Below are positions 25,472 through 50,702 of a DNA stretch of 57,996 nucleotides, in pieces. Source of the stretch: Anaerolineae bacterium (GTDB lineage Bacteria > Chloroflexota > Anaerolineae > B4-G1 > DUEL01); contig DAOTYX010000118.1 in NCBI GenBank assembly GCA_034434635.1, positions 1-57,996 of the forward strand. The letters run 5' to 3'. Below the pieces are notes generated by a model. That model ran no database searches. It was not told the DNA's origin and was given only the letters and a program-made list of their open reading frames with translations. How positions within the stretch are numbered: the first letter of the stretch is position 1; each line of letters begins with the position of its first letter. The translations under genes were made by a program, and so were the position numbers.

Positions 25472-25525
25472 TGTGTCCCAATTTGTAGGACAACTGCGAG
25501 CAGTTGTCCTACAAATTGGGACACA
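25472..25525. repeat. REP-like perfect palindrome, copy A (GTAG type)
   Basis: tgtgtcccaatttgtaggacaactgc-ga-gcagttgtcctacaaattgggacaca: perfect 26-bp inverted repeat. Confidence 0.9.
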
Positions 25526-34540: not shown

Positions 34541-34645
34541 GGGTGTTTCCCAAAACTGTCGGGTGGGCCAGGCCGTAAATTTGTGGGACAACTGCGAGCA
34601 GTTGTCCCACAAAATGACCAGCCCGACGAAATTGGGACACACCCC
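34541..34645. repeat. REP-like nested palindrome, copy B (GTGG variant)
   Basis: Core tttgtgggacaactgc-ga-gcagttgtcccacaaa (34580-34613); outer arms gggtgtttcccaa...ttgggacacaccc. Confidence 0.9.
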
Positions 34646-47002: not shown

Positions 47003-48256
47003 TCATCTCGCTACCGTGAGGGGCAGGACGAAAAGGGCCACGGTGATGACGGCGATCATCACCGTCAGCCCCCCGACCAGCCAGTTCTGCACACGCCGGT
47101 TAGCCCACTCCCCCATCACCCGCCGGTCGTTCGCCAGCACCAGTGCCAGCACCAGCAGCACCGGCAGCAGGATGGCGTTCAGCGACTGCGACAGCCACAT
47201 AATGGGGAAGAGTGGGATCCCCGGAATCAGCACCACCAGGGCGCTGAAGGCGATGATGGCGGTGTAGAGGCCGTAGAAGATCGGCGCGTCACGCAGCCTT
47301 TGGTCCAACCCGCGCTCCCAGCCGAAGGCCTCGCACACGGCGTAGGTGGTGGAGAGAGGCAGCACCGAGGCAGCCAGCAGCGACGCCCCCAGCAACCCCA
47401 CGGAGAAGAGATAACGCGCCCCGGCTCCGGCCAATGGCTCCAACGCCACCGCCGCCTGCTCTGCCGTCTCCACGGAGATGCCGTGCACATAGAGCGTCGC
47501 CGCGGTGCAGATGACGATGCAGGCAGAGACGATATTGCCCCAGGCGGCTCCGACGGCCACGTCGAGCCGGGTGTAGCGATATTCCTTCAAGTCCACCCCT
47601 TTGTCGGCCACAGAGGCCTGTATGTAGACGATTCCCCAGGGTGTGACGGTCGTGCCGATGGTGGCCAGGACAGCCAGGATGTACTGGGGATTGCTCTGGA
47701 AGGTAGGAATGACCGCCTGGCGCAGGATCTCCTCCCACGGGGGGTGCAGGATGAAGGCCGAGACCACATAGCTCAGCGCCGAGAGGCACAGCGCCAGCAG
47801 GACTTTCTCGACGTGGGTGTAGGAACCGCGCAGCACGATGAAGCCCACCAGCAACGCCGCCAGCGGGACGGCGACATAGCGGCTGAGGCCGAACATCTCG
47901 GCGCCAGCGGCGATGCCGGCAAACTGGGCCACCGTCGTGCCCAGGTTGGCCAGCAGCAGGCAGAGCATAGCGAAGGCCGTCACCCGCACACCGAAGCGCT
48001 CGCGGATCAGGTCGGCGGTCCCTTTGCCGGTCACGGCCCCCATGCGGGCTGCCATCTCTTGCACGATCACCAGGCCCACAGCCATTACCGCCAGCAGCCA
48101 GAGTAAGTGGTAGCCGTAGGTCGAGCCGGCCATCGAGTAGGTAGCGATGCCGGGCGCATCGTTGCCCGCGTTGGCAGTGATCAGGCCAGGTCCCAAGATG
48201 GCCAGGAAGAACCATATCCGCCGCAGCACGGAACCGGCACGGGATTTCAGGGTCAT
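47003..48256 (-). CDS. NRAMP-related divalent metal (probably Mg2+) transporter, ~417 aa
   Basis: LGPGLITANAGNDAPGIATYS, QEMAARMGAVTGKG, IGTTVTPWG; lacks the DPGN motif of MntH; ATG 48256. Confidence 0.85.
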   Translation of the reverse strand: MTLKSRAGSVLRRIWFFLAILGPGLITANAGNDAPGIATYSMAGSTYGYHLLWLLAVMAVGLVIVQEMAARMGAVTGKGTADLIRERFGVRVTAFAMLCLLLANLGTTVAQFAGIAAGAEMFGLSRYVAVPLAALLVGFIVLRGSYTHVEKVLLALCLSALSYVVSAFILHPPWEEILRQAVIPTFQSNPQYILAVLATIGTTVTPWGIVYIQASVADKGVDLKEYRYTRLDVAVGAAWGNIVSACIVICTAATLYVHGISVETAEQAAVALEPLAGAGARYLFSVGLLGASLLAASVLPLSTTYAVCEAFGWERGLDQRLRDAPIFYGLYTAIIAFSALVVLIPGIPLFPIMWLSQSLNAILLPVLLVLALVLANDRRVMGEWANRRVQNWLVGGLTVMIAVITVALFVLPLTVAR

Positions 48257-48275: not shown

Positions 48276-49535
48276 TCAATACAGGCGCGGCAGACGCTTC
48301 TTCCACGCCGTGGGCAGGATCGTGTCCACGGCATCGTCCACAGTGACAATGCCCAGCATCTCGCCCGTCCGGCTGTCCACTACCGGGACGGCCAGCAGGT
48401 CGTACTTGGCCATCAGGTAGGCCACATCCTTCTGCGAGGCGTAGGGGTCGACGGTGACCGGCGATTCTTCGGCCTCCTCATCAAGTGGGCGGTCGGGTTG
48501 GGCCATGACCAGGTCGCGCAGACTGACCACGCCGCGCAGGCGCCGCTCGGGGTCGAGGATGTACACGTAGTACATCGCCTCGTCGTCCTGGGCATCGGGC
48601 GACCTCCGCAGGTAGTCCAGCGCTTCGGCGGCGCGCAGGCCCACCGGCACCCAGGCGAACTCGGTGGTCATGATGCCGCCAGCGGAGTCCTCGGGGTAGC
48701 CCAGCAGTGCCTGGACGTCCTCGGCGTCCTCGTCCTCCATCAGGTCTAGGAGGCGGGCGCTGGTCTCCGTCGGCAGATCGGCCAGCAGGTCGGCCGCCTC
48801 GTCCGGTCCCATCTCCTCCAGGATGTCGGCAGCCCGTTCGGGGGCCAGTTGGGAGAGGGCGGCCACCTGGACCTCGGGAGGGCTTTCCTCGAGGGTGTCG
48901 GCCAGGGTCTCATTGTCCAGCCGGGAGAGGAGGGCCTGACCGGTCCTGCGGTCCAGGTCGTTGAGGATCGCGGCGATGTCGGCGGGCGGCAGGCGGCTGA
49001 TCCTCTCGCGCGAGATGCGCAACCGCAGCGGGTCGCCGTGCTGCAGGGGGGCGACGTCCTCCCAGGGGATCACGCTCTCGGGCAGGCGGCGGCGCAGGCG
49101 GCGGGCCAGCGCGACGGCGGGCCGCTCGACTCCCAGGCGCCGCAGCAACCCCCGGCCGCCCACGTCCACGCCGGTCAGGCAGAAGTGGTCATTCACCCGC
49201 GCGATCTGCAGGTCATTGACCCGCACCACGCGCCGCCCCTCGGTGTCCACGACCTGGCGGTCCAACACCCGCTCGCCAAGCGGCAGGACCTCGCCGTGCG
49301 GCGTGTAGGGGGTGATCTCCTCCCTGGGGACTCTGAGCACGACTTCGGGGAACAGTTCGCTGATCTGCTCGGCGGGGATCAGATGGGCTGGCGCGCCGTG
49401 GTCCTTCAGCACCAGCGCCACAACGGGGGGGAACGGCTGTTCCAGGTTTCCCACCAGGATGTCGGCGCACCGCCCAACGGGGCGGCTCCAGGCATCCCAA
49501 ACCTTGCGACCTCGGACCTGGCTCAGGTACAACAT
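48276..49535 (-). CDS. PRC-barrel + MgtE N-terminal + CBS-pair protein without TM domain, 419 aa
   Basis: LDRQVVDTEGRRVVRVND, PADIAAIL, MGPDEAADLL, YPEDSAGGIMTTE, YDLLAVPVVD, GIVTVDDA; ends WKKRLPRLY with no TM. Confidence 0.9.
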   Translation of the reverse strand: MLYLSQVRGRKVWDAWSRPVGRCADILVGNLEQPFPPVVALVLKDHGAPAHLIPAEQISELFPEVVLRVPREEITPYTPHGEVLPLGERVLDRQVVDTEGRRVVRVNDLQIARVNDHFCLTGVDVGGRGLLRRLGVERPAVALARRLRRRLPESVIPWEDVAPLQHGDPLRLRISRERISRLPPADIAAILNDLDRRTGQALLSRLDNETLADTLEESPPEVQVAALSQLAPERAADILEEMGPDEAADLLADLPTETSARLLDLMEDEDAEDVQALLGYPEDSAGGIMTTEFAWVPVGLRAAEALDYLRRSPDAQDDEAMYYVYILDPERRLRGVVSLRDLVMAQPDRPLDEEAEESPVTVDPYASQKDVAYLMAKYDLLAVPVVDSRTGEMLGIVTVDDAVDTILPTAWKKRLPRLY

Positions 49536-49587
49536 GGGCTCCTCCTAAGGTGGGCTGTATCCCCGAGACGCCACCGGCCAGGCACGG

Positions 49588-49617
49588 AAAAGGGGCCGCG
49601 GAACGGAGTGCGGCCCC
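49588..49617 (-). terminator. Intrinsic-terminator-like hairpin in the leader of the Mg2+ transport operon
   Basis: GGGGCCGC-actccgttcc-GCGGCCCC-TTTT, about 50 nt before ATG 49535. Confidence 0.65.
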
Positions 49618-49650
49618 TGGCGGCTCACCACACCTCAGGAGGAAAGGCCG

Positions 49651-49749
49651 TCAGGCCGCTCCGCCGGACTCCTTTTGGGACGTGCAACGTTTTGACGGGT
49701 CTGCGGCGTCCTGCTTTGTCTCGTTAGTTTCTCTGGATGATTCAGACAT
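49651..49749 (-). CDS. Candidate 32-aa leader peptide (uORF)
   Basis: MSESSRETNETKQDAADPSKRCTSQKESGGAA*; weak SD; the stop abuts a putative antiterminator strand. Inference only. Confidence 0.3.
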   Translation of the reverse strand: MSESSRETNETKQDAADPSKRCTSQKESGGAA

Positions 49750-49812
49750 CGCGTCTCACACGGCCTCGGCACGGCGAGGCTCTCTGGGCAAACATGAGCC
49801 CACAAGGAACGT

Positions 49813-49840
49813 ATTATACCCGAGAGCGTGGGCTTGTCAA
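49813..49840 (-). promoter_or_regulatory. Consensus sigma70 promoter of the MgtE(N)-NRAMP operon
   Basis: TTGACA (49840-49835), 16 bp spacer, TATAAT (49818-49813). Confidence 0.85.
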
Positions 49841-49850
49841 TCGAAGGGTG

Positions 49851-49908
49851 GTAGGACAACTGCGAGCAGTTGTCCTACAAAGCGGCCAGTCCGAGTTGGG
49901 ACACACCC
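49851..49908. repeat. REP-like palindrome, copy C
   Basis: gtaggacaactgc-ga-gcagttgtcctac plus right outer arm ttgggacacacc; left outer arm absent. Confidence 0.88.
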
Positions 49909-49947: not shown

Positions 49948-50105
49948 GTAATTACCTGCCCGGCTGCCCGCCACCGTGTGCCGATTGGAAATCGGCCTTT
50001 CTGGGTGCCTGCGGCGCCAGGCGTCGGCCTGCGCCGACGCGGAAACAGCGGTCGGCGCAGGCCGACCGCAGGCCGAAGGCCTGAAGCGGGCGACTTCAGT
50101 CGGCG
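49948..50105. repeat. ~160-bp composite extragenic repeat, copy 1
   Basis: 54/56 identity over the first 56 nt with copy 2; hairpins GCCGATT-GGA-AATCGGC and GTCGGC-GCAG-GCCGAC; ends ttcagtcggcg. Confidence 0.88.
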
Positions 50106-50117
50106 GCAGCGCCGCTG

Positions 50118-50702
50118 CTATCGCCGGTGGGTCCAGCGGCGCCACCACGGCTCACGCGGCGAAGGCACAGCGGATGGTTCGATCTCGGAAGCAGGGAAGG
50201 GCGACGGCCGATGTTTCGTCGTCTTCTCCAGCGCCGCGAGCCGCTGCTGCAGCGCGTCCCGCTCGGCGCGCAAAGAGGTGACCAGCGCTGTTAGCCCTGC
50301 CACCTGGGTGCGGAGGGCGCCGTCGGTCAGACAGGCGGACTGATAGGCCTTCAGGAAGTCCCAGACCCGGCGTTTCATCACCGCATACTGCATCTCCATC
50401 TGACGCATGCGGCGCACCAGAAGGTCCAGTTCGTCCCGCGCTGGCGCATCATCCTGCTGGATCAGGGCGCGCGCCTTCTCTTCCAGAAAGGCCCCCAACC
50501 CCAGGGACAGCAAAGCCACGAATGCCTCTCCCCGGGGCCATTCCTGCTCTCTGGCCACAGCCTGAATCTGCTCCACCATCTCGGCGGTCAGATCTATGGA
50601 GACACGTACCAGGCCGCCAGGGAAGTATTCTGCCTCGAAATCCGCCGCCGGTATCTGGGCGCTGATCTCATCCAGCAGGTTTTCGCGGTGACTTTCATCC
50701 AT
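50118..50702 (-). CDS. Putative ribbon-helix-helix + coiled-coil protein with Trp/Arg amphipathic tail, 194 aa
   Basis: VRVSIDL-TAEMVEQIQAVAREQE-WPRGEAFVALLSLGL pattern; heptads; C-terminal PWWRRWTHRR; AGGAGA SD. Confidence 0.7.
   Translation of the reverse strand: MDESHRENLLDEISAQIPAADFEAEYFPGGLVRVSIDLTAEMVEQIQAVAREQEWPRGEAFVALLSLGLGAFLEEKARALIQQDDAPARDELDLLVRRMRQMEMQYAVMKRRVWDFLKAYQSACLTDGALRTQVAGLTALVTSLRAERDALQQRLAALEKTTKHRPSPFPASEIEPSAVPSPREPWWRRWTHRR

Follow-up and report, generated by a model that had tools for sequence, protein, structure and literature searches.

Layout of the leader and the operon

The window, by which we mean the whole 57,996-nucleotide stretch of Anaerolineae DNA analysed here, carries a predicted attenuator on its minus strand, upstream of a magnesium-transporter operon. 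The features of the leader and of the operon are, in the order of transcription:

49813 to 49840, minus strand: sigma-70-type promoter (TTGACA 49840-49835, 16-nt spacer, TATAAT 49818-49813)
49651 to 49749, minus strand: uORF of 32 codons plus TGA (ATG 49749, TGA 49653-49651), encoding the peptide MSESSRETNETKQDAADPSKRCTSQKESGGAA
49696 to 49722, minus strand: DE/P-rich stretch of the uORF, codons 10-18 ETKQDAADP, ending in Asp17 (49701-49699) and Pro18 (49698-49696)
49656 to 49685, minus strand: 5' strand of the predicted antiterminator in the last third of the uORF (GCACG 49685-49681, AAAAGG 49676-49671, CCG 49667-49665, CGGAGCGG 49663-49656)
49628 to 49650, minus strand: post-stop segment with the anti-SD CCUCCUGAGGUGUGG at 49642-49628
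49588 to 49617, minus strand: intrinsic-terminator-like hairpin (5' arm GGGGCCGC 49617-49610, loop 49609-49600, 3' arm GCGGCCCC 49599-49592, UUUU 49591-49588)
49582 to 49606, minus strand: 3' partner of the predicted antiterminator (3' half of the loop, 3' arm, U tract and a conserved CGUGC at 49586-49582)
49533 to 49554, minus strand: SD strand and start codon of the first operon gene (CCCACCUUAGGAGG 49554-49541, GGAGG 49545-49541, ATG 49535-49533)
48276 to 49535, minus strand: gene 1, a soluble protein of 419 amino acids with MgtE_N and two CBS domains, without the membrane (pore) domain of MgtE
47003 to 48256, minus strand: gene 2, an Nramp-family transporter of the NRMT type (Pfam Nramp, 2.9e-95)

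The promoter matches the consensus at 12 of 12 positions, with 0.1 such sites expected in shuffled sequences, and similar promoters are found about 60-70 nt upstream of the uORFs in orthologous leaders. Transcription would start near 49806, so that about 271 nt of leader precede the ATG at 49535. The uORF is preceded by a weak SD, GAGA, 4 nt before its ATG. An in-frame TGA lies 9 nt upstream, so that ATG 49749 is the sole possible start; the last codons of the uORF are GGAGCGGCC (49662-49654). A preliminary description of this DNA had reported a perfect promoter, a leader of about 270 nt, a 32-codon uORF with a weak SD and the absence of an M-box, and it had proposed a search for known RNA families; all four observations are borne out here, and the search returned none.

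This search, run with cmscan on the leader (49536-49840) against all 4227 families of Rfam 15 at E < 10, gave chance-level miRNA and sRNA matches only; a model of the enterobacterial mgtA leader, if Rfam 15 contains one, was thereby covered. With a covariance-model match of at least 44 bits as the threshold for membership in the M-box family (ykoK, RF00380), the 96%-complete genome contained no M-box, and the leader gave no match even at E < 10; control genomes did give matches. At the gathering score, no Rfam family matched in five orthologous loci of the uORF type, and 40 orthologous loci yielded one M-box only, in the locus L073. The folding of the whole leader is unremarkable (z = -1.6, not significant), and its 5' third is unconserved in sequence among relatives. 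The 5' part ahead of the uORF (49750-49806) contains two hairpins, GGGCUC..GCCC and GCCUCG..CGAGGC, the second of which ends 9 nt before the weak uORF SD.

Upstream of the promoter, 10 nt from the -35 box, lies a 28-nt perfect palindrome (GTAGGACAACTGC-NN-GCAGTTGTCCTAC, 49851-49878), which also occurs at 25485-25512 and 34583-34610 of the window and upstream of mgtE in another genus (L014). An operator shared with the mgtE locus was considered and rejected, as the palindrome is a genome-wide, REP-like repeat with 29 sites in the genome compared with none for the reversed control. At 49984-50125, also upstream of the promoter, there is a GC-rich long inverted repeat with a weak sub-threshold match to the Caulobacter sRNA CC3513 (27.5 bits, gathering score 40).

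Orthologs of gene 1 were detected in 96 of the 401 genomes sampled from the class. The N-terminal ~180 amino acids of the protein have no match in Pfam (E <= 1). Gene 2 probably starts at ATG 48256, 19 nt after the stop of gene 1, and its translation reads DAPG (DxxG) in helix 1 and TTVT (TxxT) in helix 6. The signature of the NRMT Mg2+ clade is DxxG-TxxA/T, as opposed to the DxxN-AxxM of Mn2+/Fe2+ transporters (PMC8806188). By this site motif gene 2 belongs to NRMT/NrmT and is predicted to be a Mg2+-type transporter. The combination of an MgtE fragment with an NrmT gene has been described before, and in Clostridia such pairs are preceded by an M-box (PMC4072509). Besides the operon, the genome carries one CorA, whose gene lies so close to the contig end that only ~80 nt upstream of it are available; no MgtE pore domain was found in the genome.

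A translated uORF with a constrained peptide

We read the upstream regions of 75 orthologs of gene 1 and then of 12 more. Nearly all orthologs with an identity of at least ~50% have a small ORF of 18-60 codons between the promoter and a hairpin with a U tract; most of those below 49% identity have no such small ORF. The uORF is kept in the same place in about 50 orthologous Anaerolineae leaders. Its frame is open in the 42 curated leaders, in which the two shifted frames carry stops in 29 and 37 cases, respectively; nine further orthologous leaders were read after these 42. In a comparison of nine phylogenetically separate pairs, the uORF frame has a pN/pS of 0.39 and the shifted frames have 1.34 and 1.19, with an excess of nucleotide changes at third positions. 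L001 and L086 differ at four codons of QDAADP, each time synonymously. Judging by these substitution patterns, the uORF is translated and its peptide is under purifying selection.

The leader peptides are hydrophilic and of low complexity, have 18-60 amino acids and share only short conserved motifs. Serine is 3.4-fold enriched and small residues in general are enriched, while leucine, valine and isoleucine are depleted. At least three D/E/P residues are found at positions 2-11 in 40 of the 49 distinct peptides (mean 3.3, background 2.4), and position 2 is Asp or Glu in 27 of them. The peptide of the window has three D/E/P in residues 2-11, four in residues 10-19 and a single proline. Within its clade a core (D/E)-P-(P/S)-S-(S/T/K)-(K/R) recurs in the leader peptides, and we propose the stretch of codons 10-18 as a candidate site where ribosomes pause or abort. 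A more distant clade (L033-L049 and others) has peptides that end in Pro-Pro-stop, as is the case for 10 of the 49 distinct peptides. No codon run for one amino acid was found in the window peptide, and the downstream genes are for transport, not for amino-acid biosynthesis.

In enterobacteria, Mg2+ transporters are regulated by small proteins such as MgtR and MgtS. The purifying selection seen here could similarly reflect a small acidic protein that acts in trans, for example on the transporter or in metal handling, in which case the helices described below would be ordinary mRNA structure. We consider this very improbable: beyond short motifs little of the hydrophilic, low-complexity peptide is conserved, no family in Pfam or NCBIfam matched it, and the 3' end of the uORF is constrained by its pairing with the terminator.

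A terminator-like hairpin and a competing helix

The hairpin at 49588-49617 folds with -19.6 kcal/mol (z = -3.3), and none of 200 shuffled sequences folds as well. Its GC-rich stem of 8-9 bp is directly followed by the U tract, and it falls below the criteria of a simple terminator scan, which gave no call because the loop has 10 nt and there are only 4 U. The hairpin that the preliminary description took for a terminator is present, with its U tract. Such a hairpin with its U tract recurs at the same place in 38 curated orthologous leaders, and the tract of the relatives has 3-8 U, often 5-8. The terminator is 90% paired on the alignment A1 and was recovered by RNAalifold on the alignment A2. 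It was the sole helix that RNAalifold recovered on the MAFFT alignment, since the distance of the anti-SD varies.

The RNA of 49700-49580 has as its minimum-energy fold a different helix, in which the last third of the uORF pairs with the 3' half of the terminator loop, the 3' arm, the U tract and the CGUGC that follows it, and which is expected to act as an antiterminator. On the alignment A1, which includes 14 relatives, 75% of the cells of this helix are paired, and sliding the partner lowers the value to 37-55%. Pairing reaches 84% in the core helix, where both sides change in 6 of the 11 pairs. The covariation score is 0.294 (0.222 for shuffled alignments) and was reached by none of 500 shuffles. 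The loop and its antiterminator partner change together, as in GAACGA/UCGUUC, GAAUGA/UCAUUC and GGACAGAC/GUCUGUUC, and the GCGUG after the U tract is conserved in relatives because it pairs in the antiterminator. In the clade with the Pro-Pro-stop ending, the antiterminator strand starts directly after the stop, as in L034 with TAA-GCAGACAAAC facing the loop GUUUGUC. A first test, comparing own with swapped duplexes in all 35 leaders, gave modest separation only and was replaced by the column-wise count and a clade-restricted test.

The preliminary description had named another pairing as the antiterminator, between GGAGCGGCC and the 5' arm GGCCGC(AC)UCC of the terminator, and had suggested looking for covariation in orthologous leaders. 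The pairing is possible, with -15.8 kcal/mol. Across the relatives, however, 61% of its cells are paired compared with 60% after shuffling and there is no covariation, so we rejected it as a conserved antiterminator; the covariation is found instead in the alternative helix described above, which excludes the terminator. A register neighbouring the rejected pairing appears in the fold computed for nascent RNA that does not yet include the 3' arm, and pairing of the GGAGCGGCC type may have a transient role there.

An anti-SD sequence after the uORF stop

The anti-SD starts 9 nt after the uORF stop, within the reach or footprint of a ribosome on the stop codon. It pairs with the SD strand of the operon in the computed folds, and its flanks vary among the leaders yet stay complementary. 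In 17 relatives the duplex has an energy of -25.2 kcal/mol with the own partner and -18.2 kcal/mol with swapped partners, and the own partner ranks 1-3 in 13 of the 17, a comparison that overstates the case because the 17 relatives are related to one another. The helix between anti-SD and SD covaries and would, on these comparisons, form a second, translational layer of control, which the preliminary description did not contain. By occupying the stop codon, a ribosome on the uORF would open the anti-SD helix as well, and on the full-length mRNA this would act in the opposite direction to the logic of the terminator.

Control could be mainly translational and positive, with finishing ribosomes melting the helix between anti-SD and SD and the hairpin serving as a structural clamp. 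Apart from the covariation and the position of the anti-SD inside the footprint of a terminating ribosome, the short U tract is in line with this, and so are two leaders of full-length mgtE genes (L117 and L120) that have an SD-sequestering hairpin (CACCUCCGGG / CCCGGAGGUG) and no obvious terminator. There is also a precedent in mgtQ-mgtB of Salmonella, where a small ORF lies upstream of a Mg2+ transporter gene whose ribosome binding site is held in a helix (PMC8092293). The mgtQ ORF differs in that it has 8 codons, is located between genes and acts on translation only, whereas here a terminator/antiterminator pair is conserved as well. If translation were the main target, the covarying helix of the uORF 3' end with the terminator 3' arm and U tract would have no role. 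Against it also stands the hairpin with its U tract, often of 5-8 U, which is kept at the same place in 38 leaders. We regard mainly translational control as improbable.

Two predicted exclusive states and the position of the ribosome

In constraint folding of the full leader, the state with the antiterminator (-118.9 kcal/mol) and the state with the terminator (-118.7 kcal/mol) are equally stable. When a ribosome is masked in silico at the uORF stop the leader folds into the terminator, and with the mask at Asp17-Pro18 it folds into the antiterminator. Of the 38 leaders folded free of ribosomes, 10 have the 3' arm in the alternative helix, compared with ~2% when the upstream part is shuffled, and the stop-codon mask restores the terminator in 37 of the 38. 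The ribosome-free minimum is the terminator and not the antiterminator in 27 of 38 relatives, and the switch would therefore be partly kinetic. Before the 3' arm is transcribed, the 5' arm of the free RNA is tied up by the uORF end and the anti-SD in the computed folds, which a ribosome at the stop prevents.

A long leader with several conserved helices and two equally stable states might also be a riboswitch made of RNA alone, with an ion or metabolite as its direct ligand and the uORF incidental; the mgtA leader was formerly read in this way. Such a riboswitch would not explain why the reading frame is always open and is selected at the level of the peptide. The lack of an Rfam match and of conservation in the 5' third of the leader also speak against it, and we give this explanation very little weight. 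Since a selected uORF lies amid competing RNA helices, the ribosome, and not a magnesium riboswitch, probably controls the operon.

We thus consider it likely, from the comparative and folding analyses, that the operon leader is a translation-coupled transcription attenuator. The logic suggested in the preliminary description, in which a ribosome at the stop codon turns the operon off, is supported by the conserved and translated uORF (the description had made the proposal depend on such conservation, which is seen in the frame and, with a pN/pS of 0.39, in the peptide), by the covariation of the alternative helix and by the return of the terminator under the stop mask in silico. In the off state, ribosomes that reach the uORF stop would shield both the post-stop segment and the strand of the antiterminator. 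The terminator would form and transcription would end near 49588, and any read-through RNA would keep its SD locked by the anti-SD. In the on state, ribosomes would pause or be lost early, either in the acidic N-terminal stretch with its small residues or at Asp17-Pro18, leaving the strand free; the antiterminator would then form and the operon be transcribed, and the freed 5' arm would occupy the anti-SD so that the SD is open. The clade with the Pro-Pro-stop ending would fit the same logic if a slow stop holds the ribosome there.

Magnesium as a possible signal

The complete explanation that we favour is an attenuator with a translational lock on an operon for an MgtE-like sensor and an NRMT transporter, with the ribosome as the proposed Mg2+ sensor, and we put its probability at roughly 55%. 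For Mg2+ as the signal of the leader, taken alone, we put the odds at even or slightly less. Mg2+ is inferred because of the cargo genes, because of the peptide, which like MgtL is acidic, rich in small residues and contains proline, and because a related uORF is found before mgtE and an M-box before a distant ortholog.

As for MgtL, an N-terminus with D, E and P together with small residues is reported to favour intrinsic ribosome destabilisation, which becomes worse at low Mg2+ (bioRxiv 10.1101/2021.02.02.429294). The leader peptides share this type of composition, as they are DE/P-rich at the N-terminus, increased in small residues and poor in Leu, Val and Ile. With a single Pro and a modest acidic load, the peptide of the window is weaker in this respect than the EPDP of MgtL, and the weak SD of the uORF also counts against the Mg2+ reading. 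Slower translation of mgtL raises the transcription of mgtA (PMC6460261). By analogy with MgtL, low cytoplasmic Mg2+ would make ribosomes fail on the peptide, and the ribosome itself would be the Mg2+ sensor.

Of 30 mgtE loci in the order, only two (L117 and L120, the latter identical to L013) have a related uORF ahead of the full-length gene. It has the form MDEI..EDGPPSS.KG..RL.PAN.ID.PP.. and has RLQPA in common with the uORF of the NRMT operon of L024. The M-box of L073 scores 133 bits and lies upstream of an Anaerolineae ortholog of gene 1 with 44% identity. The upstream region of L073 (60-770) carries a promoter, the M-box at 118-287 and a terminator at ~316-357. Another terminator-like hairpin (611-650) lies about 250 nt beyond it, ahead of the gene start at 750, and this locus may be under tandem control.

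The same uORF attenuator could instead answer to another signal, such as Mn2+ demand, translation capacity, EF-P activity, prolyl-tRNA supply or polyamines. The Pro-Pro-stop motif, with which many members of the distant clade end, depends on EF-P. Salmonella mgtL itself responds to EF-P and proline besides Mg2+ (PMC6460261). Furthermore, an NrmT relative from Acidobacterium that likewise has an MgtE-like gene next to it, but lacks an M-box, acted as an importer of Mn2+ (PMC4072509), and the link of our leader to Mg2+ is indirect. On the other side, the site of the transporter is that of NRMT, DxxG-TxxT, and not the DxxN-AxxM of Mn2+ transporters, and both the M-box before the distant ortholog and the related uORF before mgtE point to Mg2+. 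We know of no ribosome-based sensing of Mn2+. Taken together, another signal is in our view rather unlikely, though it deserves more weight than the remaining explanations discussed above.

Comparison with known leaders

The closest resemblance of the proposed attenuator is to the mgtL leader of mgtA in Salmonella and E. coli, and also to mgtP and mgtM of mgtCBR. There, a short ORF is located in a leader of ~270 nt ahead of the gene for a Mg2+ importer, and where the ribosome stands on this ORF decides between alternative RNA helices and thereby sets transcription into the coding region (PMC6460261). The MgtL peptide has many D, E and P residues close to its start (bioRxiv 10.1101/2021.02.02.429294), a trait that the peptides described here may share. 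In the window, a short ORF of the leader is translated, judging by the selection on it, the NRMT motifs make gene 2 a predicted Mg2+ importer, and covariation together with mask folding indicates, computationally, exclusive helices chosen by ribosome position. By sequence the two show no relation, and there is no match in Rfam, Pfam or NCBIfam. The window uORF has 32 codons and a single Pro compared with 17-18 codons and four Pro in MgtL, and its predicted terminator is intrinsic with a U tract, whereas termination in the mgtA leader is Rho-dependent. The predicted anti-SD lock, the phylum (Chloroflexota) and the cargo of an MgtE fragment with an NRMT transporter are further differences.

The M-box occupies the same regulatory position, ahead of the gene pairs of Clostridia (PMC4072509) and in L073, and it also works through a terminator. 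It is, however, an RNA-only sensor with an aptamer of 169 positions, and nothing like it exists in the leader or the genome. In the amino-acid attenuators (trp, his, leu) a leader peptide is likewise combined with an exclusive antiterminator and terminator, and a ribosome at the stop favours termination. Those peptides differ from ours, which has no codon run tied to the pathway of the operon. Moreover, the untranslated trp leader terminates, whereas the ribosome-free RNA of the window is predicted to favour read-through.

Significance

To our knowledge, Salmonella and E. coli alone have yielded worked-out cases of Mg2+ sensing through the ribosome. In other bacteria the control of Mg2+ importers is usually ascribed to the M-box riboswitch or to gating domains. 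Our literature search, whose coverage was incomplete, found no description of a leader peptide before mgtE or NrmT outside the enterobacteria. We tentatively suggest, at somewhat less than even odds, that the Anaerolineae have an independently evolved, family-wide ribosome-based Mg2+ sensor before NRMT and MgtE importers, which replaces the M-box and combines an acidic, small-residue peptide (ending in Pro-Pro-stop in one clade) with an intrinsic terminator and an SD lock.

If this is true, Mg2+ sensing by the translating ribosome could be a general bacterial strategy and not an enterobacterial peculiarity. A covarying antiterminator and a leader peptide in Chloroflexota, before a fourth class of Mg2+ transporter, would show an independent origin. 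With 32 codons, an intrinsic terminator and no Rho, the leader would also give a compact system for the effects of nascent-chain composition and Mg2+ on ribosome stability. Finally, the comparison marks about 50 unannotated small ORFs and would help to predict which relatives of Nramp take part in Mg2+ homeostasis.
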